Source: a bacterium (GTDB lineage Bacteria > Patescibacteriota > CPR2 > UBA1875 > CAIMLA01). Taken from it: a stretch of 64,000 nt of DNA. The DNA lies in contig JBAXUE010000002.1 in assembly GCA_037129835.1 (NCBI GenBank), forward strand, positions 66,334 to 130,333, written 5' to 3'. Of this stretch, positions 2,059 through 56,949 are shown one piece after another. Numbering within the stretch: position 1 is the stretch's first letter; every line of letters starts with the position of its first letter. The notes beneath the pieces were generated by a model that saw only the letters and a program-made list of their open reading frames with translations, made no database searches and was not told where the DNA came from. A program made the position numbers and the translations under genes.

Positions 2059-2845
2059 TTCACGAAATATTCGAAGGGCTGTTCGTCAACCTTCTCTATA
2101 TTCAAGGACAGAAGAGCCAGCTCCTAAGCCATTCTCTTTCCGTTGGATAATTATCTTCGTTATTTTGTTGTTAATAACTGGGATTATATTTTTAGTATTT
2201 ATTTCTGACGTATTTAGGGTTAATAATGTGGTTTTTTCTCCTACGAAATACATTAGTAGGGAAGAGTTGGAAAAAACTAAGAATAATAATCAGACACTTT
2301 TTGATAATAATATTATTTCTTTTGGCTTTTTTGGTCTGGCGGGAAAGCTTGAGAAAGTGACTGGAGTTTCTAAAATTTCTGTTATTAGAAAAAGCAACCA
2401 TGACATCTATGTAAATATAAAGGAAGAATATCCTCTCTTGGTTTGGCAGACGATGAATAAAAAATATTTGGTCAATAACGATGGAATTATCTGGGCTAAT
2501 TTTGAAGATAAATATGCCAGTGTCCCGATTATAATTGATACCAAGAATGTACCCGTAGAACTGAACTCAAAGGTAATTCCGGGTACCTTTATCTCTTTTA
2601 TTACTGAACTACAGAATAATTTTCCAAAGAAAACCGCTAATACAATTATAAAAATGGAAGTTTTGGATATAATCAGCGATCTTAGGGTCACTACCAAAGC
2701 TGGCTGGTGCGTTTATTTTGATACATCGAGAACTGCCGGTAACCAGATCATAAGCTTGGGCAGAGTTCTAACCGAAGTCGCTGCTAAAAAGCAACCACTT
2801 GAATATGTCGATCTTCGGGTCAGAGACAGAATATTTTATAAGTAG
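2024..2845 (+). CDS. FtsQ/DivIB-like cell-division protein (basic N-terminus, single TM, POTRA-like)
   Basis: Basic cytoplasmic N-terminus, one TM (WIIIFVILLLITGIIFLVFI), periplasmic domain; canonical position after murG; call rests on position and topology only. Confidence 0.5.
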   Translation: MKKMKISQRRNNSRNIRRAVRQPSLYSRTEEPAPKPFSFRWIIIFVILLLITGIIFLVFISDVFRVNNVVFSPTKYISREELEKTKNNNQTLFDNNIISFGFFGLAGKLEKVTGVSKISVIRKSNHDIYVNIKEEYPLLVWQTMNKKYLVNNDGIIWANFEDKYASVPIIIDTKNVPVELNSKVIPGTFISFITELQNNFPKKTANTIIKMEVLDIISDLRVTTKAGWCVYFDTSRTAGNQIISLGRVLTEVAAKKQPLEYVDLRVRDRIFYK

Positions 2846-2955
2846 GTTCGATGCTCGCTTCGGGGGAGAGGACCACAATATTTGTATAATAATTTATTAA
2901 TATTAATAAATTAACTTCTAGGTATAAACGTATAAATGCCATAATGTTAATTTAA

Positions 2956-2993
2956 CTAATTATTTGATAATAATACAATTATCAAATAATTAG
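2956..2993. repeat. Perfect 16-bp inverted repeat ctaattatttgataat / attatcaaataattag with 6-nt spacer
   Basis: Read directly from sequence; AT-rich palindrome in the convergent ftsQ / T4SS-ATPase intergenic region. Confidence 0.6.
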
Positions 2994-2999
2994 TATTTT

Positions 3000-3028
3000 A
3001 CAGTTCAAATAATATATTATGTTAAACT
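3000..3028. promoter_or_regulatory. Candidate dif (XerC/XerD) recombination site
   Basis: ACAGTTCAAATAATATATTATGTTAAACT: XerD arm TTATGTTAAAC is 10/11 to E. coli dif TTATGTTAAAT; spacer AATATA vs TGTATA; also resembles the Firmicutes dif ...AATATATATTATGTAAACT; lies in a convergent intergenic region. Confidence 0.45.
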
Positions 3029-3179
3029 ATACATTTAACAATTTACTTGCAAAGAAAACTCCAGCCACATACTGCAGAGCTATTACAGATACAGAATAAC
3101 TTTCTCCAATATTTAGGCTTTGCAAAGATATAAACGATGTATTTTTATCGTTTTCTATGACCACTTACACCCCCAAGTC

Positions 3180-3345
3180 GATATAATCAAATAGTCGTCC
3201 AAGATATATTGTGCGACACAATGCTTCAAGCAGTTCTGGTAGGTAAGGGTGAGGCTATGGTAGTCATCTAAGTATTTAATTAGGTCGACCCATACCGTTT
3301 AGACTTAGGGCGCAGAGAAAAAAGGGGGAACTTCTTTTACTTTAT
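3180..3345. other. GC-rich structured noncoding block (possible small RNA) in a 610-bp intergenic region
   Basis: Local GC far above the flanking AT-rich spacer; TATAAT at 3182-3187 with a weak -35; tgtgcgacaca hairpin; no ORF; RNA family not recognisable. Confidence 0.2.
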
Positions 3346-3456
3346 AATGTAACAATTCTATTGTATTTTGATTAAGTAATTGAGTATTTTAAAAATAATC
3401 CCCCCAAAAAAAATTGGATATAATTTGTAATCATAAACGATAACTTAATATATTAA

Positions 3457-6453
3457 TTAAAACCGGATTTCTTCGCCTGGCTTTATCTCTTTAGTACTAC
3501 TGATGATTATTTTTTCATGTGGAAGTATCGTGGTTATGTCTTTAAAGTCACTAGGAGCTATCTCTCGTTGCTTTTTGTCGCTATGAGTACTGTTTGTATG
3601 TATTGTACTCGGTTTCGCCACTGTGACGATGATTTCTTTTATCTCAGTCTTTGTCTCCAATTTTGGTTTTTCAATGGGGGAATCCAGCTTCTTGGGTTCT
3701 ATATTTTTTGTATTTTCGGTAATTGCCTGTTTTAACTTATCTGCCAGCTGAGTGTTATCGTTTTTTACTTCACTCTTTCCCCTATTTAAATTTGAATTAG
3801 AACGAGAATTTGTGTTCTTTTCTTTATTGTTACTATTAAATTTGTTTTTACTTCTCTCATTATTGTCGTTATGATCATTACTACTATTATTGGAAATATT
3901 GGTATTACCGCTAGCGCTAGGTTTTTCTTTATCTGGTTGCGGAGTAACCATTTCTTTGTTAGCAGGTGGAATGTAATTAGGATTTGTAATAGGTCTATCG
4001 CCTTCGTTGGCATTCACGCCAGCGATTACCGAATCGATATTGTACCATTTCCGAATATCGTCTTCTACTTTCTTTTTTGGAGTACCGTATTTTTTTCGCG
4101 AAATAGCAATTACTATGCTCGTTAGATCTTCCGTTGGCTCTGCAGAGGGAATACTTTTTGCTGAGAATGGTGAGCTATTTACTCCATTTACTGGCATATT
4201 AAGGTATAAATGCCGATTGTCTAGATTGATAAGGTCATTCTGTGAAAATATAGGCTCAAATTCTTTTTCTAGAAAGCTAGCATCTGTTGCGCCCACCCTA
4301 AATGATATCAGAGTACCTACGTTGCCAAATACCGCGTCTCTAACCTCTTCCTCCATCTGTGCAACGTATTGGTTGGCCACAGCTAGGGAAAGATGGTATT
4401 TTCGGGCTTCAGAAAGAATGGTTCCAAAGGATTCTGTGGCAAAATTTTGAAACTCATCAACGTAAAGATAGAAGTCTTTCCTCTCTGATTCAGGAATAAA
4501 CGCTCTTTGCATGGCAGCGAGCTGGATTTTTGTGATTATTAATGAGCCAAGAAGTTCTGAGTTTATCTCCCCTATTTTGCCCGTTGATAGATCTACTAGT
4601 AATATTTTTCCCGTATCCATTATTTCTGAAAAGTTAACAGTGCTTTTTGGTTGACCAACAATATTGCGAATAGTTTCTGAAGCTGTAAATTGGCCAACTT
4701 TATTAAGAATAGGCGCTACAGTCTCAGTAGCCATTTTATCATTATAGGTAGAAAACTCTTTGAGCCAGAACATCTGTACTACTGGGTCAGTTACTTGGCT
4801 AACTACATTTTTGCGATAATTTTTATCGGTTAGCATTCTGACAATACCTAGCATAGTAGAGCCCTCAACTTCTGCTAGCGCTAGTACCGTGTGATTTAAG
4901 ACATATTCTAGCCTTGGCCCCCAGGAGAACCCAAACATTCTCTTCAGTACTGATATAAAGCCCTTTGCAGTCTCTTCACGCATTCCAGGGGGGCTTTCCA
5001 GGGGATTAAAACCTAGGGGAAACTCTTTATCAGAGGGGTTAAGATAAATAACATCATCTAGGCGCTCTTTGGGGATAAATTTAAGAATATTATCTATAGC
5101 CTCTCCATGAGGATCAATAAAGGCTACACCCTCCCCTCTTTGGATATCTTGTATCGCTAAACCTTCAAGAAGCCTAGACTTTCCTACTCCAGTTTTCCCG
5201 ATTATGTACATATGTCTTCGTCTATCATCTCTTTTGATCCCGAACAGTTTATCGCTATTTCGGAAAGTTGTAATCGCAAGGGGTGAAATGTCTTTATCGT
5301 TAATGTTTTCATCAGTAATGAAGGGCAAGCTTGATGGTGGTTCGCCTTTTTTCGAAGATGTCCATACGATATTGGGCGTTTCTACCGAAACATGTGGCAA
5401 GTGATATAAACTTGCAAGTTCTTCAATATTAAGATCATAGCCCTTGTCATTAAATAGTCTTGCCCGATAAGCGTTTAAGAATTCTTCACTTGTAAATAAA
5501 CCCTTCCCAGTAAAGCCATTTAAGTTTGTTGTATTAAATTGTTTAAAAGCACCAACAACGGCTTGAATTTTATCGGTAGCCTTTTCTCTGGACTTAGAAA
5601 GATATACAACCCTTATCATGACGCGATACCCGAGTTTGGCGCTCTTGTCTTCAATGGCTGTTAACTCAGTTTCTTCTGCATGAGAAAGTTTAGGCGCCTC
5701 AGGCTTAGCATCTTTTTTAGCTTCTACGGGTGCAACATTGAGCGCATTGAATATAAAATCTAGAGGGAGGGTGCCGGAGTTGGGTTTTATGGTTTTTTTA
5801 GACGCGATATATGAAAGAGCTTTTTTCCTCCAGTCGTCATTTTCTGGTTTTGCGAGTATTTGAATCCAAATTTGTTCATTTGGCTCATTGGTCATAGAAA
5901 GCATGCCCGTAATTCCTGCCAGCGGGTCAACATCAAAGTTCAAAAAAGTTTTTATTGGGTAAATATCATCTTTTGTAAGAAGTAATTCTGTTCCCGCAAT
6001 AGCATCTGGATTTTTATCACCGTCTACATCGGTTGTTTTTGAGTAGTCATTAACCACTGATATTTCCGCAGTCGGATATTGAGCATAGACTTGACCTTCT
6101 ACAAATTCTTTAATCTTCTTGGGCACCCAGATGAAAAATTCTATAGAATTTAACGTAGAGACGATTTCAAGGCTGAAATGTTCTTGTACGGTGGTTCCCT
6201 TTTTTTGTTCGCTTTTTGAATGAAGAATACCGTGTAGGGCTGCGAACATCATTTCTGCTGCCACAGGGCCTTTCTCATTATTTTTAGGTATTTTTATTGA
6301 TAAGACAGTATGTTCAATTTCGTTTACGTATGAAGCTTTTTTAAAATTTTTCCATGAAAAAAATAGAACTAGTGGTACTATAAACCACCAAGTCCAAACT
6401 ACAACACTCCACATTCCTCCAAGTATCGCTAAGCTAAGTTCCTGCAAAAACAT
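3457..6453 (-). CDS. Membrane-anchored FtsK/HerA-superfamily ATPase of the type IV secretion/conjugation type (TraD/VirD4 coupling-protein-like or VirB4-like), with a roughly 200-aa low-complexity N/S/K-rich C-terminal tail
   Basis: Two N-terminal TM helices; Walker A IIGKTGVGKS followed by FIDPHGE (T4CP-like DPxGE); Walker B YLYVDEFQNF; ...EARKYHLSLAVANQ...; disordered tail NTNISNNSSNDHNDNN... Confidence 0.6.
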   Translation of the reverse strand: MFLQELSLAILGGMWSVVVWTWWFIVPLVLFFSWKNFKKASYVNEIEHTVLSIKIPKNNEKGPVAAEMMFAALHGILHSKSEQKKGTTVQEHFSLEIVSTLNSIEFFIWVPKKIKEFVEGQVYAQYPTAEISVVNDYSKTTDVDGDKNPDAIAGTELLLTKDDIYPIKTFLNFDVDPLAGITGMLSMTNEPNEQIWIQILAKPENDDWRKKALSYIASKKTIKPNSGTLPLDFIFNALNVAPVEAKKDAKPEAPKLSHAEETELTAIEDKSAKLGYRVMIRVVYLSKSREKATDKIQAVVGAFKQFNTTNLNGFTGKGLFTSEEFLNAYRARLFNDKGYDLNIEELASLYHLPHVSVETPNIVWTSSKKGEPPSSLPFITDENINDKDISPLAITTFRNSDKLFGIKRDDRRRHMYIIGKTGVGKSRLLEGLAIQDIQRGEGVAFIDPHGEAIDNILKFIPKERLDDVIYLNPSDKEFPLGFNPLESPPGMREETAKGFISVLKRMFGFSWGPRLEYVLNHTVLALAEVEGSTMLGIVRMLTDKNYRKNVVSQVTDPVVQMFWLKEFSTYNDKMATETVAPILNKVGQFTASETIRNIVGQPKSTVNFSEIMDTGKILLVDLSTGKIGEINSELLGSLIITKIQLAAMQRAFIPESERKDFYLYVDEFQNFATESFGTILSEARKYHLSLAVANQYVAQMEEEVRDAVFGNVGTLISFRVGATDASFLEKEFEPIFSQNDLINLDNRHLYLNMPVNGVNSSPFSAKSIPSAEPTEDLTSIVIAISRKKYGTPKKKVEDDIRKWYNIDSVIAGVNANEGDRPITNPNYIPPANKEMVTPQPDKEKPSASGNTNISNNSSNDHNDNNERSKNKFNSNNKEKNTNSRSNSNLNRGKSEVKNDNTQLADKLKQAITENTKNIEPKKLDSPIEKPKLETKTEIKEIIVTVAKPSTIHTNSTHSDKKQREIAPSDFKDITTILPHEKIIISSTKEIKPGEEIRF

Positions 6454-7553
6454 TATTCCCTCCCGTTAGAAATGGTATAAGTAGCCCGAGATATTCGCCT
6501 AAATCGATCTCTTTGGAGATTGAGTAATATCGTCGTTTCTTTTACAACCCTTCGTTTCAATACCTCTATTATAATATCGTCTTTATGCATAGGTTCGCCA
6601 GATGTAATTAATATTTCTGCTATTACATCCTCTACCACGCCAGAAGTATAACCCCACTCCTTGAGCGCATAGATACCTCGACCGATTAAAATAAATCTGT
6701 CATCACGTATAAGTTCATTGTGTACGGCTTGTCTGGTAACGGTTTTTTTCTTAGTTCCAACATCTTGAATCTTTTTTGATATTTCAGAATAATGAAGAGG
6801 TTTTTTGTGTTTCTTTAAGATGTAATATGTTTTATCCTTAATACTTTTAGGATTAATTTCACGCCATTTGGTAAGGCCGAAGTGTCCTGCTTCGGTTTTG
6901 ATGATTTCCTTAGCGGTCGATAATATCGCGATAATATTTTTAGTATCTGTATTTGCTTCAGGGATAGTCATTTTTATTTCTCGTATAAGCTTTACTTCTT
7001 CTATGGGATTTTGTTCTTTTTCGAGGATACTAATAGCTGCAGCACTAATCGTTTTAATTAAGGGTATTGTAATTGGTTCGACAAAATACGATTTTTTAAA
7101 GTTATCAGCGTCAGAGAGCGTTGAGATGTTGTTACTGCAAGAGATCAAAAAACTTAGTTGATATCGTTGTTTTGTAGTAACCACAGCGGTGAAAATATCC
7201 TTTTCTAGGTCGCCAGAAACGATGATGCCACCGTTATTGATTATAATATCTTTAATGATTATATATATTTCTTGAGCTCGCATGTCGGTTTTGCCGAAGT
7301 CGCGAAGCTTACCAATGGCGTTCTTCTCTATTTGTCGTACGCGTTCCCTAGTAATGCCTAGACTCTTACCTATTTCTTCGAGAGTTTTTGGTTTTAGGCC
7401 ATCAACACCAAAGCGTTCGCTCAACACTTGTCTTTCGCGATCTTTTTTTATTTTTGCAGAATTCAAAAAAAAATTAACCTCGTCTGTTGCATTAAATTTT
7501 GCAACCGAAGGTATCTCTACTGTATTCGTGTTTTTTTCTTGTTTTCTAGGCAT
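6453..7553 (-). CDS. DNA-binding protein: N-terminal sigma-70 region-4-like HTH plus C-terminal HARE-HTH-like domain
   Basis: [27 protein letters not shown] matches the sigma70 r4 HTH; C-terminus [12 protein letters not shown]... resembles the HARE-HTH of RNAP delta; stop overlaps the start of the downstream ATPase (translational coupling). Confidence 0.5.
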
Positions 7554-7613
7554 AATTCGTAATACGATTATAGCATAAAATAGCCTGTTGTGTCAACTTA
7601 TTTGCCTATAGCG

Positions 7614-8462
7614 TTATTTTATGAATATATCTATTAAAGTGCCCGCAACGGTGCTGATAACCACCAGAATCAGGGCTATTTGTGCGAGATTTTTCCACTT
7701 AATGCCTCTAGCTGCTAGAACGACGAAGACCTCTCCACCAGCGGCAGAAAGTCCAGCTACTACGGCGCCAAAGGTAATGATTTTTTCAATATATAGAGTC
7801 GCTATCGCTATAGAGGTGCCACAACCTGGTATCAACCCCACTAATGACGCAAGGAAAGGCTGTAGCCATAAAATATTCGCAAAAAAGTCGTTTAAAAAAG
7901 TCATTGTATAGGTGTCTTGAATATAATTAAAAATAGCAAGCGTGATAAATACAATAAAGACCACTCGGATAGCATGTTTGATGGCATGTATGATCTCGCC
8001 TTTCAGGCCATCATGGTGCGGATGTTGTGCGCAACAAAACTCTATTTCTTTTTCAATTTTGGTTCTGCGTATCTTAAATCCAGGGAAGAAGTCTACTAGG
8101 TAGCCAGCCGTTATGGCTATAATTAGCTTAGCCAGTAAAATCGGTATAAACTTTTCTATCCCAAGCGGTATAAATACATATATCGCTTCGTCAGAGATAG
8201 CAATAATCGCGGCTACCAAGGTTCCTAGGGTCGCTATCCCTTCCGTAAACAATATCGCTATTACAACAGCTACATTACATCCGGGAAGCATTCCGAAAAG
8301 TGCAGCGAACAGAGGCATCATTTTCTTGGATTTTTCGAGTTTATGTTCAACCTTATGTCCGTATCGATGATTAAAATAATCAACAATCACAAAGATAGGC
8401 AGGATTATTACTCCTACTCTTAGCGCAGTTTTTGCTGCTTCTATTATTGGTTCCCAATTCAT
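7614..8462 (-). CDS. Polytopic membrane protein with internal duplication (two PGC-containing halves, His-rich linker HPHHDG); possible metal/ion transporter
   Basis: Hydrophobic throughout; repeated ...LPGCNVAVVIAI... / ...LIPGCGTSIAIA... halves; family not confidently identified. Confidence 0.4.
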   Translation of the reverse strand: MNWEPIIEAAKTALRVGVIILPIFVIVDYFNHRYGHKVEHKLEKSKKMMPLFAALFGMLPGCNVAVVIAILFTEGIATLGTLVAAIIAISDEAIYVFIPLGIEKFIPILLAKLIIAITAGYLVDFFPGFKIRRTKIEKEIEFCCAQHPHHDGLKGEIIHAIKHAIRVVFIVFITLAIFNYIQDTYTMTFLNDFFANILWLQPFLASLVGLIPGCGTSIAIATLYIEKIITFGAVVAGLSAAGGEVFVVLAARGIKWKNLAQIALILVVISTVAGTLIDIFIK

Positions 8463-8477
8463 TAGGTTATTTTACCA

Positions 8478-9287
8478 CTATTTAAACAATCTTTTATAAT
8501 TTAGCCAGCTAGAAAGTTCGCTTTCATTTTGAATGTATCCACGATATTCTATATTTTCTCCGAGATGTATGCCTAGGTGCAGGTGTTTTCTCTCCCCCCC
8601 ACTATTAGTACTGTAGGCTGGTGCCAAATTTGCTATTAAACTTTTTTTGTTTAAAATGTCGTTAACTTTTAGGTTTGATGAAGCAATATCAAGATGACCG
8701 TAAAGCACGGTTACTACTTGTTCTCCCACGTTGCAATCTTGGATAACAGCTCCTCCATATCCTTCTATTGGTCCGATTAGACGTATTTTTCCGTTACATA
8801 TTGCGGTTATTGGCACCGCGATATCTGCCTCATTAGATAGCGTTTCAAAATCAATGCCGGTATGAAATCCTATAAAATTCTCGGGCTGTATTGGTGATTC
8901 AGTAGGCGTGACATAGATTCCAAAAGGTTTTTTTGTTATTCTGGATAAAGAATTTGAGATGGGTTCGCCTAATGTCCCTATATTCGATGTCGTCGTCGGT
9001 ATTGGTGTAGGCGTTGGCGTTAACATCGGCGTCACACTAGGAGAAGATTTTGCATTAATGCTTCGTTGTAAATATACCCTACCTTTTACGACGCATTTTC
9101 GTGGATTGCTCATCTGAACTGGGATGCCAGCCTTTATACAACTTTCATAACTATTTATTTGGCTTAAGGTAAATTGTTTATATGCGTATACTAGAACAAT
9201 AAATATAATAAAAATTATTAATAATAAAAAATAATATATTCGCTTATTGTGTATCTTAATTCGTAAAAATTTACGTTTCCTATACAT
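8478..9287 (-). CDS. M23-family peptidoglycan metalloendopeptidase, membrane anchored
   Basis: N-terminal TM; HTGIDF ... LYGHL ... HLHLGIH motifs of LytM/M23; Thr/Pro-rich linker. Confidence 0.7.
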   Translation of the reverse strand: MYRKRKFLRIKIHNKRIYYFLLLIIFIIFIVLVYAYKQFTLSQINSYESCIKAGIPVQMSNPRKCVVKGRVYLQRSINAKSSPSVTPMLTPTPTPIPTTTSNIGTLGEPISNSLSRITKKPFGIYVTPTESPIQPENFIGFHTGIDFETLSNEADIAVPITAICNGKIRLIGPIEGYGGAVIQDCNVGEQVVTVLYGHLDIASSNLKVNDILNKKSLIANLAPAYSTNSGGERKHLHLGIHLGENIEYRGYIQNESELSSWLNYKRLFK

Positions 9288-22356: not shown

Positions 22357-22431
22357 AGTAAGATTATATATGGTTTATGGTTTAGTGTCAACTATAAACT
22401 ATAAACTATTAATCAAATAATATTTCTGGTC

Positions 22432-33109: not shown

Positions 33110-33137
33110 TTGACAACTAAAATACGCGGAGTATAAT
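33110..33137 (+). promoter_or_regulatory. Consensus sigma70-type promoter TTGACA-16-TATAAT on the plus strand, inside a GC-rich intergenic block
   Basis: ttgacaactaaaatacgcggagtataat read directly; every flanking gene is minus-strand. Confidence 0.4.
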
Positions 33138-40063: not shown

Positions 40064-43000
40064 TTATTCTTCTTTGCTTTCGATTTCCGCAGCTGCCTTG
40101 ATGGCTATCATGGTTTTCCAGAGATCTTGTAATGTGCTTAAGCCCTCGGTATGGCTAAGTGCGGCCTGACTCGGTTTGCTTATTTCGACGAAACCGGCTT
40201 TACCGATAATCTCAGGGACAAAACCTTGTGAGTCATCATTAATCGGTTTCTCATAGTCAGTCCACGGGTCTACAAAGGCTACTTCCATGTGTTTTTCGGT
40301 CGGCATTATCTCAACAAATTTTGTATGATCTTCACCGACACCATCCTTGGTTTTACCAAAAAATCGTAATGTTACTCCACCGAGAGATTCCTGTCTTCTG
40401 TTTAAAAAGTTGTAAAGACACTCGAGAGATCGGGGTGCTCTTCTAGTAGATTCATCCATAAATAAAGCTCTTCCTCCAAGCATTGAAATCATTTTGAGGA
40501 ATGTGAGATACTCATCGATCCCCTCTGGCTCATCTTTACTGGCGTTAGAAAGACTAGAAGGAATTTTCGTGCCATATATTGGTATTATAAGCTCATCGTC
40601 ATATCCAATAGCTTCTTTTGCCTCTGTAATTAATGTTTCGTCTAAGGCGCCAGTTTGTTCATACTCTTCAAAGGCGGCTTCAATCCGATCTTTATTTGCT
40701 CGTACAAAATTGCGAATATCATCGGTACGAAGCTCTTGGAGTATTTTTCTTTCTTTAGCAAACTGTTCTGGTAAGTATTCGGCTGCTACATCGGCAGGAC
40801 CAGTCCTCTCATTGGCAAGCAAAAAAACAGGGCTTTCTGGATTTTCTCTTTGATATAACAGAGCCGTATTCCAAGTAGTGACTGATGACTCAATATTATG
40901 TTCCATAGTTTCTATCAATTGCTCTGGAGTAAAATTTGATTTTCTACGATTTCTACCTTTTTTGTCTTCTAGTGAACCAAGCTGTTCGTAAAAAATATCT
41001 CCAGTAGTATAGGCTGAACCCTTTTCTATAATTTTTTGTGCGATATATTTTGCCATTTCTACCAGTGGTATTGCATTAGGATGTTCTCTTTTTATCTTCA
41101 CAAATTCTCTTAGAAACTCAACAGGCATCTTAAAATTCTTTGGCTTAATATTTAGATCGCTGACAATCTCATCGTAGATCTTTCTGATGTGTATATAATC
41201 GGAGGAAAAACGGTCAATCTGTGCTGCATCTTGGGAAAAAGGAACAAAACCTTCCTTGAAACCATCCAAAGAGGCTTCTAGCTTACTCTGTATCTGCTCT
41301 ACAGTATCATCTAGGGTTACTTGGTCTTCTGTCAGCCACCTAAGTGCCCGTGAAATTATTTGAAATCTATCGGCGTCAGAATAATTTTCTAGTTCCCTTG
41401 TTAGTATTTGTAGTTTTATTGGGTTATCAAACTGTTTATAACAGGAAATGTCCAGTAGTATCTGTGTGGCTTCTTTTCCCTCTGCAAACAAAGATGCTGT
41501 CAACTGTCCCAACTCAGAATTTTTTGTTTCCTCTAGGTCAGATATTCTTTCGTCGGAAATATTCGTAATGTTATCCACAAAAGTCATAAAAGAATCAAGT
41601 AATAGTTCTCGATTTTCTTTTTTGATACTACCGCTTTCTATAGTGTCTTGGTAAACGTCTATAAAATACCAGAAATTATCAAGACCGGTTTTGTCGATCA
41701 CTTTACTAAAAAATTCTATATCATCATCTCCGCTAAATAATTCGGGATTCGACACAAGATATTCGCAAAGCCTTGTATAATTTATTGCTTCAGTGTGATC
41801 TGTGGCAGACCCCAATATTTTATTTATAAAATCCTTGAAACCAGGCTTTTCGGCAAGAATAAAGACATTCGGCAAAGCCTCTTCGGATAAATATAGGTCA
41901 TAAAATAATTCATTATTTGCCCTTAAGTCTGTTATGTATGCGACATATTCGCTAGCTGCAGTCACCTGCTCTTTTGTAACTCCATGTACCTGTCCATATA
42001 ATTCGAACCCAGACTCGGAAATTTTGTCAGAAAGGAAAAGAGCATCCAATAACATTTTTGCAGTATTTTTGCTTTTCCCAAGCCTTTCGTAATTGTTCAA
42101 CAATACAAGGATAGCAGTCCTAACATATTCTAAATCTCCTTTATAGGTAAATTCTTGGAAGATTTCCACTAAAGAAGCTATAACTCTTGGGTTGGTAGCG
42201 GTTTGAAGTGCTTGGTCGAGCTCGTTTAGATGATCAGCTTTTGCTTGCTCTACATTCTCACTACCATCTTTATCTTTTTCTGGAAAATCTTCCATAATCC
42301 CAATGATAAAAAATCGCTCTTCTTCAGTTCCATTGTTGGCAAAATATAGTGCAGTTTGCCTTAAAAGGCGGCGAAATTCACGGTCATTGTCAAAATTACT
42401 TTTTTCTCCACTGTCTTGATACCAAAGTTGCAGGGTATTCGGATTGGCCTTGATGAAAAGTATAAAATCCAGAAGCTCTTTGGGGAGCTCTATTAGGTTT
42501 CTCAAGTCATCAGATGAAAGTGACTCTAGATATCCGGGTAACTGATCAATATATGGCCAACCTCCAGAATAACCTACCTCTCTAAAGGCATTTAGGACAT
42601 TAATCTTTACGGCCTCGGGATCTTTAAAAGAAAGAAGCATAGAGCTACATCTCACCGAAAGGTCTGAATGGTCGTTTATTACTGTCATTTCATCGATAAT
42701 TGATCTTTTTATTTTAGTACGGATTATATCGACTAGGGTTTCTCCAAAAATATCTGACAAACCAGGGGCTTCTATTAAGAATTTGATTAAATCACGTTTT
42801 TGATTAAGAAAATCACCATCAATTTCAGTTATTAATCGTTTTAGCATTGTGGTATCTGCAATTGAGTCTTTTTGAGGGTTGCTTTCGACTTGTCGTATGC
42901 GTTTTCTTATCAATTCGGCTAGATCATTGTATTTATCGAATTCTGTAAAAATAGTAACGGCATCTGCAATATTATTTCTACTAATATTCATTGATTTCCT

Positions 43001-43846
43001 GATCTCAGAGGCTAAATCATGGCCACCGATCTCCCTAATTTTTTCTTCAGTCTCTGAAAAGTCACCGTCTTGGTAAAATTCTAAAAGGGGTACTCTCGCT
43101 TTTTCTAAGTTTTCATCAGAAAGTGCTTTTATTTGTTTGACCAGATAGTCGCGATAAGGCCAGACAATCAATTCTTTTTCTGCTTCTTCTCGTGTCTTCC
43201 GAGCTTCTTGAACAAAGTATTCATAGAAGGAAAGACCCATCTTCTTTTGTAATTCTACCCCTGGATCTAACTCATCTTTTTCGGTTAGGATGCTATTTAC
43301 GGCTTGTTTCATCTCGTCGATCTCTTCCCAACCGACAGACATAGATGGTTCTGCGATACTAATGATTGAACTTATAGTTAGCGCGCCATTAAAATTATAA
43401 TATTCTGGTTGTACGGGGCTAGTAATATTTGAAGATTCTTTAAGTCTTGGGAGGTTATTTTGTAAAACCTTGATTCTAACGTTATTTTCTCTGATGGAAA
43501 TGCTCAGCTGGACAATTTCTGTGATGATTGTTTCTAGTTCTTGATTTGTATTATCTTTAGATAATATCTCTCTCAATTGAGACATTAATGTGAATAATTT
43601 TTCATCAAACCTGCCGTTCATTTCCACCCAAATTTTAAGAGACTTGCATAGTTCTTCATACTCCGTCACATCAATTTGTTCTTTCGACTCTAGTTCCATC
43701 TTATAGTCTACGATAGAGGGCAAAAGCGGTTTTGTAATGTCAATATATAGACGAGAAAGTAGTTCGTTCTTGTCAATGCGTTTTTCTAATCTTTGATAAG
43801 GCGTTTCCGGGAACTCTGTATTCTCATGTTCTATTTCTTGGCTCAT
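40064..43846 (-). CDS. Giant hypothetical protein (1260 aa), predominantly alpha-helical, no recognised domain
   Basis: Long uninterrupted ORF with coding-like composition. Confidence 0.5.
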   Translation of the reverse strand: MSQEIEHENTEFPETPYQRLEKRIDKNELLSRLYIDITKPLLPSIVDYKMELESKEQIDVTEYEELCKSLKIWVEMNGRFDEKLFTLMSQLREILSKDNTNQELETIITEIVQLSISIRENNVRIKVLQNNLPRLKESSNITSPVQPEYYNFNGALTISSIISIAEPSMSVGWEEIDEMKQAVNSILTEKDELDPGVELQKKMGLSFYEYFVQEARKTREEAEKELIVWPYRDYLVKQIKALSDENLEKARVPLLEFYQDGDFSETEEKIREIGGHDLASEIRKSMNISRNNIADAVTIFTEFDKYNDLAELIRKRIRQVESNPQKDSIADTTMLKRLITEIDGDFLNQKRDLIKFLIEAPGLSDIFGETLVDIIRTKIKRSIIDEMTVINDHSDLSVRCSSMLLSFKDPEAVKINVLNAFREVGYSGGWPYIDQLPGYLESLSSDDLRNLIELPKELLDFILFIKANPNTLQLWYQDSGEKSNFDNDREFRRLLRQTALYFANNGTEEERFFIIGIMEDFPEKDKDGSENVEQAKADHLNELDQALQTATNPRVIASLVEIFQEFTYKGDLEYVRTAILVLLNNYERLGKSKNTAKMLLDALFLSDKISESGFELYGQVHGVTKEQVTAASEYVAYITDLRANNELFYDLYLSEEALPNVFILAEKPGFKDFINKILGSATDHTEAINYTRLCEYLVSNPELFSGDDDIEFFSKVIDKTGLDNFWYFIDVYQDTIESGSIKKENRELLLDSFMTFVDNITNISDERISDLEETKNSELGQLTASLFAEGKEATQILLDISCYKQFDNPIKLQILTRELENYSDADRFQIISRALRWLTEDQVTLDDTVEQIQSKLEASLDGFKEGFVPFSQDAAQIDRFSSDYIHIRKIYDEIVSDLNIKPKNFKMPVEFLREFVKIKREHPNAIPLVEMAKYIAQKIIEKGSAYTTGDIFYEQLGSLEDKKGRNRRKSNFTPEQLIETMEHNIESSVTTWNTALLYQRENPESPVFLLANERTGPADVAAEYLPEQFAKERKILQELRTDDIRNFVRANKDRIEAAFEEYEQTGALDETLITEAKEAIGYDDELIIPIYGTKIPSSLSNASKDEPEGIDEYLTFLKMISMLGGRALFMDESTRRAPRSLECLYNFLNRRQESLGGVTLRFFGKTKDGVGEDHTKFVEIMPTEKHMEVAFVDPWTDYEKPINDDSQGFVPEIIGKAGFVEISKPSQAALSHTEGLSTLQDLWKTMIAIKAAAEIESKEE

Positions 43847-47512: not shown

Positions 47513-47632
47513 TCGCTAAACGCTGGTTTGATCCAACGCTGTCGTCTTATGAACGACAAGAACTGATAGGACTTAACACAAACGATATTATAGTCATTTA
47601 ACGGGGTTTTGTCAATAAGCATCAATAATAAA

Positions 47633-51190: not shown

Positions 51191-51268
51191 GTGCGGTATT
51201 ATACTCTTTTTTACCTATATGTCAAGATAATTTACTGTTACAAGTTTTTGTTATAGGAATAGGTTGCT

Positions 51269-54126: not shown

Positions 54127-56289
54127 TTATACATTTTTATGTGGATTATGATTAGGACAATCTTTGCTAGAACAACGCTCTGGGATAGTTTTGGTCCCTT
54201 CCATCATCAGAGAGCCGCATTCTTTACATATATTACCTGTCGGTTTCGCTTTAATAGCGTATTTGCATTTTGGATAATTGTTACAAGAATAGAATATTCC
54301 GAAACGACCTTTTCTTTCAGCCATTTCACCTTTTTTGCAGACTGGGCACTTTACGCCAGTACCATTATCGATTACAGCCGTTTCGTCTTTTCTGATATAT
54401 TTGCATTTCGGATAATTTGAACAAGAAATGAATTTGCCGTATTTTCCCTCACGTTCAATAAGATCTCCGCCACATTCGGGGCAGGGTTCACCGATTGGTT
54501 TCGGCCCTTCCATCTCTTCGCCTTCCATAGTAAGTGCACCCTGGCATTCTGGATACTTGGAGCAACTAAGAAATTTACCGTTCTTCCCAAGCTTTATTAT
54601 CATACTACTTTTGCATTTTGGGCATTTGAATTTTGGATCCGCAGGTTCTGGTTTTACTGGTTCTTTGAGCTCTGTTTTTACTTTTTTGATAAATGGACCA
54701 TAAAATTCTGACAGTATTTGGACATACTTGGCTTTTCCGTTAGCTATAAGGTCAAGTTCATCTTCCATTTCAGCAGTAAAGGTGTCGCTGATGTATTCGG
54801 CAAAATATTTTTCAAGAAAGGTACTAACAACATCGCCGGTATCTGTAGGAATGAGTGTTCGACCCTCTTTTGTAACATAGCCACGATCTTCTAGTGTTTT
54901 CATAATGGAAGCATAAGTACTAGGTCTGCCGATACCTCTTTTCTCTAATTCCTTAATCAGGCCAGCTTCCGTGTATCTGGTTGGAGGTTCGGTCTGTTTG
55001 GCAGTAGTAACAAAATCTATCAGTGTTAGCTCGTCACCGATATTAACTTTTGGTAGGTTGACTTCTTCGCCTGCCACTGCCGGATCAGCTGAAAGCCAGC
55101 CGGCGAATAGTTGATGACTACCATTGGCTGTAAATAAAGGAAATTTGTTGTCATCGTAATACTTGGCAGTTATCTTGCTTCGAAGAAGTTTGGCATCAGC
55201 CATCTGACTTGCCACTGTTCTGCCCCATATCAGCTTGTAGAGTTTCTTTTGTTCGTCATTGTGACCAGCATTGTCATGTTCAAAATTTGTGGGACGGATT
55301 GCCTCATGAGCTTCCTGGGCATTTTTACTCGTAGTTTTGTATTTATGAGGGGATAAATATTCTTTGCCGTACTTACTCGTCACCACTTGGTTTATTTGTT
55401 CTAGCGCTGTCTCTGAAAGATTAGTACTATCGGTACGCATATAACTGATTAAACCTGCTTCATATAGTTTCTGTGCTACTCCCATGGTTCGTGATGGCGA
55501 GAATCCTAGTCTAGTGCTCGCTGTCTGCTGTAGTGTAGATGTAGTAAATGGTGGTTTTGGTGCTCTTTTTGCTTCTGTACTTGTGACATTGGCAACTATC
55601 CATTGTCCATTTTTGGCAACGGTTTCTATTTCGGTTAATCGTTCTATATTTTTTGGCTCTTCGGTACAGGTAAGCGAAAGATTATCTTTGCCCAGAGTCT
55701 TTGTTTCGGCAACTAGTGTCCAAAAATCTTCACTGACAAAAGCTCGTCTTTCTCTTTCTCTTTCCATAATAATTCTAAGTGCAGGAGATTGTACTCGGCC
55801 TGCAGATAGACCATATCGAACCTTTTTCCAGATGACTCCAGAAAGGTCATAGCCAACAAGACGGTCTAGGACACGCCTAGCCTGTTGTGCATCTACTAAG
55901 TCAATATTTATCTTGCGTGGATTATTGGCGGCATGTTCAACTGCGCTTTTGGTGATTTCATGAAATTCAATCCTGTCATAATCGCTTTCTTTTAGCTTCA
56001 ACGCTTGGGCCAAGTGCCACGAAATTGCTTCACCTTCACGATCAGGATCAGTCGCCAGTAGTACTTGGTCGGCTTTCACTGCTACCGCTCGTAGATCACT
56101 GATAATTTTTTTACCACGGGGAGTAATAATGTATTTTGGTTTAAACCCGTGTTCGATATCTACGGCGTCTTTATTGCTTTTTGGTAGATCTCGCACATGT
56201 CCAAAAGAAGCCATTACTTTGTGGCCTGGACCTAAATATTTTTCTATTGTCTTCCCTTTTGCGGGAGACTCTACAATTACAAGTTTCAT
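54127..56289 (-). CDS. topA: DNA topoisomerase I with C-terminal zinc-ribbon repeats
   Basis: TOPRIM N-terminus (MKLVIVESPAK), Topo IA core, three to four C4 zinc ribbons (CPKCKS..., CPECGG..., CPVCKKG...). Confidence 0.9.
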   Translation of the reverse strand: MKLVIVESPAKGKTIEKYLGPGHKVMASFGHVRDLPKSNKDAVDIEHGFKPKYIITPRGKKIISDLRAVAVKADQVLLATDPDREGEAISWHLAQALKLKESDYDRIEFHEITKSAVEHAANNPRKINIDLVDAQQARRVLDRLVGYDLSGVIWKKVRYGLSAGRVQSPALRIIMERERERRAFVSEDFWTLVAETKTLGKDNLSLTCTEEPKNIERLTEIETVAKNGQWIVANVTSTEAKRAPKPPFTTSTLQQTASTRLGFSPSRTMGVAQKLYEAGLISYMRTDSTNLSETALEQINQVVTSKYGKEYLSPHKYKTTSKNAQEAHEAIRPTNFEHDNAGHNDEQKKLYKLIWGRTVASQMADAKLLRSKITAKYYDDNKFPLFTANGSHQLFAGWLSADPAVAGEEVNLPKVNIGDELTLIDFVTTAKQTEPPTRYTEAGLIKELEKRGIGRPSTYASIMKTLEDRGYVTKEGRTLIPTDTGDVVSTFLEKYFAEYISDTFTAEMEDELDLIANGKAKYVQILSEFYGPFIKKVKTELKEPVKPEPADPKFKCPKCKSSMIIKLGKNGKFLSCSKYPECQGALTMEGEEMEGPKPIGEPCPECGGDLIEREGKYGKFISCSNYPKCKYIRKDETAVIDNGTGVKCPVCKKGEMAERKGRFGIFYSCNNYPKCKYAIKAKPTGNICKECGSLMMEGTKTIPERCSSKDCPNHNPHKNV

Positions 56290-56358
56290 AACTAAGTGTT
56301 AATGTTATTTTAATTAGTGCTATGTGTCAATCTTTTCCATTCATGGCTGCCGGTAAAG

Positions 56359-56931
56359 CTATTCTTTGTTTAGCCATGGAAACATTTTGACGAGCTCTAT
56401 GTTTCTTTCGTCATTTTTTTCTAACGAGGCAAGGTTAAATAGTTTTTCTTTGCCAAATTCGGACATGATCAAATTGACCATAGTTATACCCACTTGATAT
56501 TTATCACCGTTTTGGGTGTAGCTAAGTTTATTCAGTAACTGTATATTTATATCTTCTTGGGTCCAAGTACTACTTTGGCCAGCAACGTATCCGCAGACAC
56601 CTTCTATTAACCATCCTGGCGTATGCTTATTGCTGACAGGGCGTAAATATTTATGAACCAGTTCGTGTTTTAAAACTTTCTGAAATCTGATGTGACCTGG
56701 ATCCTTTTGCGGGGGCATTCCATTTGGACCAATAATGTAAATATGGTTTTGGGGAGAAAAGCCAACGAGGTAGTCTGGGGCTGGGATATCATCATTTCTG
56801 TTTTTGTCATAAAAAGTAATAATATCTTTTTGACTATCAAACAAAACAACGTCTATATCTTTTAGTGGTTTGGTGCCGAAAAAGTCTGCCACTTCCTGAT
56901 TGTACCTTTGGGCTAGATCGTTTGTATCCAT
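56359..56931 (-). CDS. Peptidase_MA_2-like zinc metalloprotease-fold protein (HExxH), paralogue of 20616-21254
   Basis: LKHELVHKY...WLIEGVCGYVAGQ. Confidence 0.5.
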   Translation of the reverse strand: MDTNDLAQRYNQEVADFFGTKPLKDIDVVLFDSQKDIITFYDKNRNDDIPAPDYLVGFSPQNHIYIIGPNGMPPQKDPGHIRFQKVLKHELVHKYLRPVSNKHTPGWLIEGVCGYVAGQSSTWTQEDINIQLLNKLSYTQNGDKYQVGITMVNLIMSEFGKEKLFNLASLEKNDERNIELVKMFPWLNKE

Positions 56932-56949
56932 ATTATCTCCTTAAATATT

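Follow-up and report, generated by a model that had tools for sequence, protein, structure and literature searches.

Coupling protein homologs in Patescibacteria

Homologs of type IV coupling proteins (T4CPs) are near-universal in Patescibacteria and unlinked to virB4, with 148 of 5,713 located near such a gene; VirB4 itself was found in 2,417 of 3,035 genomes (Quinonero-Coronel et al. 2025, PMC12102498). Relaxases are almost absent from the phylum (109 in the 3,035 genomes), and the authors grant that the T4CP homologs may have been exapted (PMC12102498). In the published Tn-seq data for Southlakia epibionticum, the T4CP homolog SEML1_0293 was dispensable in co-culture (NE/NE/NE) and the gene SEML1_0294 was essential (ES/ES/ES). 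A second T4CP-like paralog, SEML1_0142, annotated as a 'TraM recognition domain-containing protein', was essential in the same table; PMC12102498 calls the S. epibionticum T4CP homolog non-essential.

The locus described here contains orthologs of SEML1_0293 (hereafter, the motor) and SEML1_0294 (the partner). Its motor gene is one of roughly two T4CP-like paralogs per Patescibacteria genome.

Organization of the locus

The two genes lie in a 64-kb stretch of a 372-kb contig (the window), to which all coordinates refer. Both open reading frames and the 998-aa size of the motor agreed with the original prediction, which had been made from the sequence alone.

6453-7553, minus strand: partner gene, 366 aa, sigma-factor-like HTH / HARE-HTH DNA-binding protein (ORF list, Pfam, family alignment)
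3457-6453, minus strand: motor gene, 998 aa, T4CP-like ATPase, a type IV coupling protein of DUF8128 type (ORF, Pfam, hhalign, AlphaFold2)
6451-6464, minus strand: coupling junction, GGGAGGG Shine-Dalgarno at 6464-6458, then TAATG stop/start overlap at 6455-6451 (sequence)
7567-7596, minus strand: putative sigma-70-type promoter, perfect, TTGACA, 18 nt, TGcTATAAT (consensus match)

As had been proposed, the motor start overlaps the stop of the upstream gene: the partner stop codon was read at 6455-6453 and the motor ATG at 6453-6451, with the Shine-Dalgarno sequence 4 nt upstream. This arrangement supports translational coupling of the motor to its sigma-region-4/HARE-HTH partner in the present genome. 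The putative promoter lies in the gap of 60 bp that precedes the partner gene and is the sole 12/12 consensus match within positions 2700-8700; across the window, five such sites were found against 0.05 expected by chance. Its -10 element ends 13 nt before the partner ATG, implying a very short leader. The pair forms a bicistronic operon that has a consensus promoter of its own.

Domain architecture and class of the motor

Five regions were delineated in the motor.

6349-6438, minus strand: single N-terminal transmembrane helix, residues 6-35 (Kyte-Doolittle, AlphaFold2)
5299-6318, minus strand: DUF8128 alpha/beta domain, residues 46-385, predicted VirB4-N-terminal-domain-like fold (Pfam PF26449, Foldseek)
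4039-5271, minus strand: T4CP nucleotide-binding domain with inserted all-alpha domain, residues 395-805 (Pfam, hhalign, AlphaFold2)
3574-4026, minus strand: N/K/S-rich disordered linker, residues 810-960 (pLDDT below 50, composition)
3460-3573, minus strand: conserved C-terminal motif, residues 961-998 (family alignment, AlphaFold2)

Two N-terminal transmembrane helices had been expected, but Kyte-Doolittle analysis gave a single hydrophobic peak (residues 6-35), after which comes the basic stretch KNFKK, and the AlphaFold2 model has one continuous helix (2-45). Between this helix and the ATPase lies DUF8128 (PF26449, precomputed Pfam), a domain of about 340 aa overlooked in the original prediction. 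When its AlphaFold2 model (pLDDT 85) was searched against the PDB with Foldseek, the top 13 matches were all TrwK/VirB4 (probability 1.0, E 5e-6 to 2e-4, query-normalised TM 0.38-0.42), and the full-length motor model matched VirB4 over about 900 columns (E 1e-15). At the sequence level, the N-domain similarity was absent, with hhalign of the motor against TrwK recovering the P-loop only (probability 5.5%). The modelling thus assigns DUF8128 a VirB4-type N-terminal domain at fold level only.

The ATPase carries the three motifs reported earlier: Walker A GKTGVGKS (residues 419-426, lysine K425), IDPHGE (446-451) and Walker B VDEFQNF (665-671, D666/E667). In an alignment of 120 homologs these motifs were invariant or nearly so, and G419-K425, D666/E667 and R684 were strictly invariant. 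The all-alpha insertion consists of helices at 489-600 between core strands of the model. In the hhalign alignment, the P-loop, D666/E667 and R684 pair with the P-loop, D356/E357 and R375 of TrwB; R375, the counterpart of R684, we take to be the arginine finger.

Both VirD4/TraD-type Pfam models matched the motor above their cutoffs, though marginally: TrwB_AAD_bind at 24.8 bits (cutoff 20.5) and TraG-D_C at 22.6 bits (cutoff 22). Other family members reached 67.7 and 48.7 bits with these models and 50 bits with T4SS-DNA_transf. The best solved relatives in a motor-family profile search were TrwB (E 2.5e-6) and DotL; direct comparison with TrwB gave 97% probability by hhalign (E 7.6e-11, 274 columns) and a target-normalised TM of 0.66 by Foldseek. 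By sequence comparison, the motor is a type IV coupling protein of the TrwB/VirD4 class, in line with its earlier description as a membrane ATPase of the FtsK/TraD/VirB4 superfamily.

Other classes were considered and rejected. As a VirB4 by sequence, the motor gave no CagE_TrbE_VirB match and reached only 20 bits with AAA_10 (cutoff 27.5). For FtsK, there was no FtsK_SpoIIIE Pfam match at E ≤ 1 and no gamma domain, the C-terminus being disordered and ending in a short motif. DUF87, indicative of HerA, scored 19.8 bits (cutoff 23.2) over the P-loop only; no NurA gene lies nearby, and HerA ranked below TrwB in the fold search. Neither an unrelated AAA family, a complete T4SS in the window nor an FtsK with gamma domain was found that could account for the gene.

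The C-terminus had been described as a low-complexity N/S/K tail of roughly 200 aa. Its composition was confirmed (N+S+K 41% over residues 810-960), but the low-complexity part spans about 150 aa, is not alignable across homologs and is followed by a folded, conserved motif of 38 aa; the region is consequently a linker plus motif and not a plain tail. The motif has the form ..F..I..ILPHEKI.I....EIKPGEEIRF, is modelled with two short strands (pLDDT 73-84 over most of its length) and is clade-specific, Saccharimonadia having a basic patch and a ...LRLR end in its place.

The partner protein

7302-7442, minus strand: sigma-70 region 4 HTH, residues 38-84 (Pfam Sigma70_r4, 61.4 bits)
6654-6845, minus strand: HARE-HTH winged helix, residues 237-300 (Pfam HARE-HTH, 44.7 bits)
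6474-6641, minus strand: second conserved winged-helix-like module, residues about 305-360 (conserved block, family alignment)

The Pfam scores bore out the predicted combination of sigma-70 region 4 with HARE-HTH. The fusion had been called unusual; it is in fact phylum-wide: more than 7,000 proteins matched at E ≤ 1e-5, and among the 120 matches listed almost all share the architecture. The S. epibionticum ortholog has been parsed as 'tri-helical, winged, winged, winged' (Wang 2023 supplement).

Region 4 is closest to that of group-1 SigA/RpoD (PDB profile matches, E about 4e-15). Profile searches revealed no sigma region 2 or 3 signature, region 4 being the only sigma region; lacking region 2, the partner cannot be a sigma factor and cannot direct promoter melting. 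TIGR04567 (RNAP delta) scored 45.3 bits on the HARE-HTH (cutoff 42). Identity as an RNAP delta subunit was nevertheless rejected, as the HARE-HTH is at residues 237-300 instead of N-terminal and an acidic tail is missing. With a net charge of about +16, the protein is basic. On an Abditibacteriota plasmid, an Eco57I-like methylase is adjoined, with 0-bp spacing, by a sigma-r4 protein that in its C-terminal half is similar to the HARE-HTH/winged-helix region of the partner (30.6% identity over 88% of that region), which indicates that the partner module is not T4CP-specific.

Conservation of synteny

Of the 71 GTDB species loci that were informative, 56 had the partner gene immediately before the motor gene, on the same strand. 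Eight more loci had it upstream with a gap of 327-1280 bp, some with an intervening ORF, giving 64/71 upstream overall. The motor was inverted in one locus, and in six loci from other classes there was no partner, the motor following a tandem paralog and a small beta-rich protein. By longest-ORF calls, the genes overlap or lie 0-15 bp apart in 11 loci, including most of the closest relatives, and even lineages with motors of only about 48% identity have kept the pairing.

The pair is embedded in a larger conserved block of DprA, TopA, the pair and then a convergent dcw cluster, which makes adjacency weaker evidence of interaction. In related genomes it closely follows dprA-topA, and some of them have a pilin-like gene in the interval; in the present window dprA-topA is 46 kb away. 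Here and in most related loci, the motor is convergent with ftsQ-murG-ftsW and, given this orientation, is not part of the dcw operon.

Relatives on plasmids and in phages

An 833-aa protein of Bacillus methanolicus plasmid pBM69 (WP_003349917.1) aligned with motor residues 62-775 (hhalign probability 100%, E 1.4e-50). The neighbors of its gene encode a relaxase (Replic_Relax), an AAA_10 ATPase resembling VirB4, and conjugal transfer proteins. A B. subtilis plasmid (27-kb type) has the same conjugation-cluster arrangement around its DUF8128-T4CP, as does a Natrinema plasmid, in which DUF8128 is a separate adjacent gene. Members of the motor family thus occur in bona fide Bacillus plasmid conjugation clusters. 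Full-length homologs also occur in Bacillus phages, namely phage G (gp156, 97% coverage, E 4e-49), JL, Shanette and TP-84. To our knowledge, T4SSs are not expected in these phages.

Functional interpretation

The analyses above establish what the two proteins are and how they are built, that the catalytic residues are conserved, and that the genes form an operon with conserved synteny. On this basis we tentatively favor, at somewhat less than even likelihood, a reading in which the motor is a domesticated T4CP paralog that probably docks on a T4SS with genes elsewhere, and the partner is its adaptor for DNA recognition. The motor would form a membrane-tethered ATPase ring, as TrwB does, and its VirB4-like N-domain may dock on the VirB4/VirB3-type inner-membrane platform of that T4SS. 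The co-translated partner would confer nucleic-acid recognition on the motor, in a role akin to that of the small DNA-binding accessory proteins TrwA for TrwB and TraM for TraD, and the disordered tail with its end-motif may be a tether to the partner or to the substrate. Several observations speak against this scheme. The near absence of relaxases from Patescibacteria leaves a docked T4CP without its classical DNA substrate, and the full-length phage homologs imply that the ATPase may work without a T4SS. The essentiality of SEML1_0294 but not SEML1_0293 implies that the partner has a function of its own, the main part of which needs no motor. Further points against the scheme are the lack of T4SS genes in the window, the six loci with a tandem paralog and a beta-rich protein in place of the partner, the conserved block around the pair, which weakens the argument from adjacency, and the likeness of DUF8128 to VirB4 at fold level only.

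These opposite Tn-seq calls lead to a rather doubtful, though serious, alternative: that the genes are co-transcribed but functionally independent, the partner being an essential RNAP-associated or general DNA-binding factor and the motor an accessory T4CP sharing its promoter. Here the partner is pictured as a sigma-4 mimic plus a delta-like HARE-HTH. The near-consensus group-1 region 4, the HARE-HTH score above the RNAP-delta cutoff, the gapped, inverted and partnerless loci, and the pairing of the Abditibacteriota relative with a methylase instead of a T4CP all speak for independence. However, the pairing persists between highly diverged motors and has outlasted the break that put topA 46 kb away here. 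The tight spacing in 11 loci, together with the stop/start overlap and internal Shine-Dalgarno sequence, would favor coupled translation, which is common for subunits of one complex.

The original prediction described a stand-alone module. It had noted no other T4SS components nearby, and indeed neither a T4SS component nor a relaxase was found in the window, but T4CP homologs are routinely encoded far from virB4 and most Patescibacteria genomes have VirB4, so that the lack of such genes in 64 kb out of a 372-kb contig says little. A likewise serious but rather doubtful rival is that the motor is a stand-alone DNA or nucleoprotein translocase, tethered by its single helix, with the partner selecting DNA for export, import or membrane handling. 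The rarity of virB4 linkage and the possibility of exaptation granted in PMC12102498 would suit such a translocase, as would the phage homologs, the position downstream of dprA-topA in related genomes (at times with the pilin-like gene) and the strongly basic KKKRTRSRKRKK-type patch in Saccharimonadia tails. Against this, a channel conducting DNA through the membrane is unlikely to form from one transmembrane helix per subunit, the nearest relatives that can be characterised lie inside complete conjugation clusters, the dprA-topA adjacency reflects general macro-synteny that is broken here, and the motor ortholog is dispensable in co-culture. The suggested role in DNA uptake is without direct support: comEC deletion abolished competence in S. 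epibionticum (review PMC12857230), which argues that uptake runs through ComEC.

A broader and quite improbable reading joins these elements: DUF8128-type T4CPs would form a lineage of their own within the VirB4/VirD4 superfamily, and the Patescibacteria motor with its essential partner a relaxase-independent DNA-handling machine. If true, a VirB4-type N-terminal docking domain would be combined with a VirD4-type motor, and Patescibacteria would have domesticated two DUF8128-T4CP paralogs, making them core genes of the chromosome. The machine might tether or move DNA at the membrane, be it chromosomal or that of the host, in partial or complete independence of a T4SS.

SpoIIIE and SftA are dispensable, like the motor ortholog. 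This likeness, the superfamily relationship to FtsK and the convergence with ftsQ-murG-ftsW recall an FtsK-like chromosome segregation motor acting at division, with the separate winged-helix partner replacing the FtsK gamma domain, but this is highly improbable given the missing FtsK_SpoIIIE match, T4CP as the clearly closest class, an annotated ftsK in Saccharibacteria (TM7x_00370; PMC10768705) and the convergent position outside the dcw operon.

Comparison with known systems

Like TrwB, VirD4, TraD and DotL, the motor has an N-terminal membrane anchor and a RecA-like nucleotide-binding domain with an all-alpha insert, its Walker A and B motifs aligned and R684 matching R375; these proteins are also its best matches in sequence and fold. 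It differs from them in having one transmembrane helix instead of two, an additional domain of 340 aa, DUF8128, ahead of the ATPase, a disordered tail of 190 aa that ends in a motif, and a chromosomal location with no relaxase or T4SS genes nearby. In R388, the DNA-binding accessory gene trwA directly precedes trwB, as the partner gene precedes the motor. With VirB4/TrwK the motor shares the two-domain build of an N-terminal alpha/beta domain and a C-terminal ATPase, and solely VirB4 chains matched the DUF8128 model among solved structures in the PDB; however, its ATPase is T4CP-like and sequence similarity stops at the P-loop.

The DUF8128-T4CPs of Bacillus plasmids, haloarchaeal plasmids and Bacillus phages have the full-length build of the motor, with DUF8128 as a separate gene in haloarchaea. 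The plasmid proteins are encoded beside relaxase, VirB4 and conjugal transfer genes and, unlike the motor, have no sigma-r4/HARE-HTH neighbor. The partner resembles group-1 sigma factors in its N-terminal HTH and RNAP delta (RpoE) in its HARE-HTH, but carries the latter C-terminally in a net basic protein without an acidic tail.

The orphan Patescibacteria T4CP homologs of PMC12102498 belong to the same family and share the same unlinked chromosomal setting. That paper contains no occurrence of sigma and does not mention DUF8128, so that the partner gene and an N-domain of VirB4 type do not come up in it. Both protein families had been recognized before and abound in Patescibacteria; what is undescribed is their pairing and the N-terminal domain of the motor, a DUF8128 placed in a T4CP between the transmembrane helix and the ATPase. 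In S. epibionticum, SEML1_0294-0293 have the same arrangement downstream of dprA-topA.

Organization of the gene pair

The feature predicted from sequence alone, an ATPase (motor) gene joined by a stop/start overlap to the gene of a sigma-region-4/HARE-HTH protein (partner), is real: both ORFs, the overlap and the motor motifs were found.

Elements of the pair
6453-7553, minus strand: partner ORF, 366 aa
3457-6453, minus strand: motor ORF, 998 aa
7596-7567, minus strand: perfect promoter TTGACA-18 nt-TATAAT with an extended -10 TG, in the 60-bp gap before the partner

The partner TAA stop (6455-6453) and the motor ATG (6453-6451) have one base in common (junction sequence GGGAGGGAATAATG), and a strong Shine-Dalgarno sequence lies 4 nt 5' of the motor start, within the coding end of the partner. 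The gap between the partner ATG and the preceding gene, encoding an ArsP_2 permease, is 60 bp. Five perfect promoters of such type were observed in the window, where chance alone would give 0.05; the other four (TTGACA-N16-18-TATAAT) are at 22363-22391, 33110-33137, 47587-47615 and 51198-51225. Because of the overlap, the Shine-Dalgarno sequence and a promoter of their own, the two genes appear to form a self-contained bicistronic unit. A search 3' of the motor gave no convincing intrinsic terminator.

At 7553-7572 (minus strand), the -10 hexamer ends just 13 nt from the partner ATG, and no Shine-Dalgarno sequence is visible at this start, which suggests a leaderless or near-leaderless partner mRNA. 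A perfect TTGACA in front of a gene whose product has a sigma-4 domain could be a hint of autoregulation.

Identity and architecture of the motor

Judged by its sequence, the motor is a type IV coupling protein (T4CP). Among solved structures, the family profile found meaningful relatives only in TrwB (E 2.5e-6) and DotL. Alignment with R388 TrwB by hhalign reached 97% probability over 274 columns and placed the TrwB P-loop, D356/E357 and R375 against the invariant motor residues K425, D666/E667 and R684. The motor passes the Pfam TrwB_AAD_bind and TraG-D_C cutoffs by a narrow margin, and its relatives score far higher (TrwB_AAD_bind 67.7 bits; T4SS-DNA_transf 50 bits). In Pfam, DUF87 (HerA) and AAA_10 stayed below threshold, and FtsK_SpoIIIE and CagE_TrbE_VirB had no match. 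The original assignment to the FtsK/TraD/VirB4 superfamily was thus right at family level and is refined here; the motifs quoted for it are present in the ORF and conserved.

Three other labels were rejected. As a VirB4 by sequence, the same family profile aligns with R388 TrwK/VirB4 at the P-loop alone (hhalign). The motor is not called pLS20-type because the pLS20 T4CP annotation carries a different signature (IPR003688). For a defence system, PADLOC matches were weak (mad8 at 5e-12 and HerA on the ATPase core; MzaA on region 4 alone), and matching neighbour genes were not seen. Among long motor homologs, a search for domain fusions or informative extra domains yielded one NUDIX fusion only. 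Searching the window ORFs by phmmer with the motor, its paralog and the partner returned only the motor and partner themselves, with no paralog or FtsK.

In the full-length AlphaFold2 model (pLDDT 81.8; above 90 across most of residues 1-810), a TM helix is followed by an alpha/beta domain of 340 aa and then by a RecA-like ATPase into which a helical domain is inserted. Two N-terminal TM helices had been predicted; there is only one hydrophobic segment (residues 6-35), modelled as a single helix 2-45. The predicted low-complexity tail does exist as a disordered N/K/S-rich stretch of 150 aa (810-960), but it is a linker, since a conserved 38-aa motif, modelled mostly with confidence, ends the protein. 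The C-termini of motor orthologs (loci L004-L083) are lineage-specific: the window clade ends in ...HPHE...KPGE..F, and many Saccharibacteria loci carry a strongly basic patch (KKKRTRSRKRKK-like) and/or an ...LRLR, ...LKIR or ...ISLR end.

In Foldseek searches of the PDB, the ATPase half resembled TrwB (target-normalised TM 0.66), and the top E-values for the full-length model went to full-length TrwK/VirB4 (1e-15, ~900 aligned columns). Residues ~46-385, between the TM helix and the ATPase, are DUF8128 (PF26449) in precomputed Pfam annotation; the domain is absent from our local Pfam-A search, whose copy is apparently older than the model. A separate AlphaFold2 model of residues 1-390 (pLDDT 85) matched TrwK/VirB4 chains only, with 13 matches at probability 1.0 (E 5e-6 to 2e-4, ~400 columns, query-normalised TM 0.38-0.42); all matches ranking below E 1e-3 were unrelated. 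On these models, DUF8128 looks like the VirB4 N-terminal domain, which provides a concrete docking hypothesis. The domain was unmentioned in the literature searched.

The sigma-4/HARE-HTH partner

The partner Sigma70_r4 domain (residues 38-84) is near the group-1 sigma consensus, with SigA/RpoD region 4 as its best PDB matches (E ~4e-15). Its HARE-HTH domain (residues 237-300) clears even the RNAP-delta model cutoff and precedes another conserved block, also winged-helix-like. Sigma region 2 and an acidic tail are both lacking; the partner is therefore neither a sigma factor nor RNAP delta, and the 'RpoS' and 'RNAP delta' labels given to such proteins by annotation pipelines are both impossible. 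More than 7,000 family members matched at E <= 1e-5, and both domains are present in 119 of the 120 among the matches listed. The best-ranked literature matches for HARE-HTH and sigma held no account of a bacterial fusion of this kind.

Against plasmids and phages, the C-terminal winged-helix region had a single match, on an Abditibacteriota plasmid (AP024153.1, 26-6403). This locus encodes a 568-aa 'RpoD' with sigma region 4, whose C-terminal half resembles the partner HARE-HTH/winged-helix region (30.6% identity, tblastn), HARE-HTH not being scored there in Pfam. It is followed at 0-bp spacing by an Eco57I/MmeI-type methylase, not a T4CP, then by DUF4007 and a small AAA protein. Other DNA-acting enzymes are therefore also paired with the sigma-4/HARE module.

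Conservation of gene order

Loci from 80 GTDB species, mostly Saccharibacteria, were compared, and 71 were informative. The partner lies immediately 5' of the motor on the same strand in 56 of the 71 (gap -1 to 145 bp) and across a gap of 327-1280 bp in eight more; the motor is inverted relative to the partner in one. A single locus (L070, CAMCBN010000003.1) has the partner 3' of the motor and convergent, with the order of the remaining block kept. Spacing of 0-15 bp or overlap, counted on longest-ORF calls, occurs in 11 loci, including most of the window's closest relatives (L004, L007-L010); most remaining loci, largely Saccharibacteria, have ~37-56 bp.

The layout differs in six of the 71 loci, from Nealsonbacteria, Berkelbacteria and others, which lack the partner within 6 kb. 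There the motor is preceded by a conserved beta-rich protein of roughly 170-190 aa with no Pfam match, and this in turn by a full-length paralog (35% identical).

Paralog and beta-rich protein layout, other patescibacterial classes
L013: 2115-7850
L021: 2934-8919
L022, L033, L060 and L056: same layout

The pair is flanked 5' by a conserved DprA-TopA block, sometimes with a pilin-like gene, and 3' by a conserved convergent FtsQ-like/MurG/FtsW/MraY/PBP cluster.

DprA-TopA block in the window
54127-58095, minus strand: DprA (56950-58095), a 190-aa ORF and TopA (54127-56289)

This block is directly 5' of the pair in Saccharibacteria; in the window it is 46 kb off, beyond housekeeping genes and a defence island, with the pair still together. 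A 1260-aa ORF at 40064-43846 (minus strand), without a Pfam match on record, adjoins a DUF2207 membrane protein.

Relatives in plasmids and phages

By tblastn, the ATPase half matched 444 plasmid records, including Streptomyces, Bacillus, Staphylococcus, Clostridium and haloarchaea, and the DUF8128 half 43, in haloarchaea and in Bacillus and relatives. B. methanolicus pBM69 encodes an 833-aa 'DUF87 protein' that matches residues 62-775 of the motor family profile (probability 100%, E 1.4e-50). Next come genes for a Replic_Relax relaxase, conjugal-transfer proteins and a VirB4-like AAA_10 ATPase, in an arrangement shared by a 27-kb B. subtilis plasmid. On a haloarchaeal Natrinema plasmid (NZ_CP100758.1, 7884-12087), a separate 382-aa DUF8128 gene, preceded by a large 'conjugal transfer protein' gene, overlaps the beginning of the T4CP gene (1021 aa); the architecture joined in the motor occurs here in naturally divided form.

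Bacillus phage G gp156 (JN638751.1, 90952-93213) matched over 97% of the region (E 4e-49), and relatives also occur in phages JL, Shanette, Slash and TP-84. Proteins combining DUF8128 with a T4CP-like part are thus encoded by Bacillus and Geobacillus phages; in phage G, two adjacent DUF8128-like genes (gp155, gp156) echo the patescibacterial tandem paralogs. Given these plasmid, haloarchaeal and phage homologs, the motor architecture is a widespread mobile-element T4CP subtype, and the family is not CPR-specific.

Distribution in Patescibacteria and Tn-seq data

The motor has more than 7,000 close homologs; an exhaustive search over 50%-identity cluster representatives gave 24,183 at E <= 1e-3 and 6,742 at E <= 1e-30. 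Quinonero-Coronel et al. (PMC12102498) surveyed 3,035 genomes: 2,918 contained VirD4-type homologs, 5,713 in all, of which just 148 were near virB4; VirB4 was present in 2,417 genomes, and the relaxases numbered only 109. The authors regard exaptation as possible. Nearly every genome holds about two T4CP-like ATPases away from T4SS, whose role is acknowledged there as an open question. We calculate that with two copies in each genome and a completeness of roughly 80%, detection would be ~96%. VirB4 and T4CP paralogs may thus both be effectively universal, and their co-occurrence therefore cannot discriminate between hypotheses.

Southlakia epibionticum ML1, which is genetically tractable, has the same gene arrangement, as listed with Tn-seq calls in the supplement to Wang et al. 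2023 (PMC10633639).

Tn-seq calls in S. epibionticum ML1 (PMC10633639)
SEML1_0298: DprA; NE
SEML1_0296: TopA; ES
SEML1_0294: partner ortholog, annotated 'RpoS', Sigma70_r4 and HARE-HTH, 349 aa; ES, ES, ES
SEML1_0293: motor ortholog; NE, NE, NE
SEML1_0142: second T4CP-like paralog, separated from the motor ortholog; ES, ES, ES
SEML1_0141: 139 aa, precedes SEML1_0142; GD, ES, ES

With SEML1_0294 ES and SEML1_0293 NE, the partner's essential role needs no motor. Read values for SEML1_0293 run 5817, 2940 and 1372 across three table columns (PMC10633639); if these are successive passages, as we assume, they may indicate a fitness cost.

Possible function

The identity and architecture of both proteins are well supported. 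For their function, we tentatively propose a domesticated T4CP paralog working with a T4SS encoded elsewhere, the partner acting as adaptor. The motor would form a membrane-tethered ATPase ring, its VirB4-like N-domain would dock on the T4SS platform, the co-translated sigma-4/winged-helix partner would recognise nucleic acid for it, and the tail motif is a candidate tether.

A serious rival, though one we find doubtful, is that the pair is merely co-transcribed without physical coupling. The split essentiality of the orthologs, the wider macro-synteny around the pair and the similar sigma-r4 protein beside an Eco57I-like methylase on the Abditibacteriota plasmid all argue for it. The motor as a T4SS-independent translocase is also a serious rival, if an unlikely one, and is supported by its phage homologs, the lack of linkage to T4SS genes and the near absence of relaxases. 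An FtsK-like role is unlikely, and FtsK replacement was rejected, as the motor has no FtsK_SpoIIIE signal in Pfam and ftsK is already annotated in TM7x (PMC10768705).

Neither protein family is new to the catalogues, and the 'orphan T4CP' puzzle has been published. In the literature searched there is no account of the conserved operon whose sigma-like partner is essential, of the resemblance of DUF8128 to VirB4 or of the link of the patescibacterial motor to Bacillus plasmid and phage homologs. Epibiotic growth of Patescibacteria relies on T4SS, and a testable lead comes from the conserved operon that joins one T4CP paralog to a sigma-4/HARE-HTH protein scored as essential by Tn-seq in one species. 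The partner itself deserves attention as a phylum-wide sigma-like protein, essential in the one species with Tn-seq data, and the Bacillus plasmids and phages with the motor architecture are tractable and open to genetic study.

A widespread mobile-element subtype agrees with the derivation of the patescibacterial T4SS from monoderm conjugation machinery (PMC12102498). In the proposed adaptor role, the partner would resemble TrwA, which stimulates TrwB and whose gene adjoins that of TrwB in R388.
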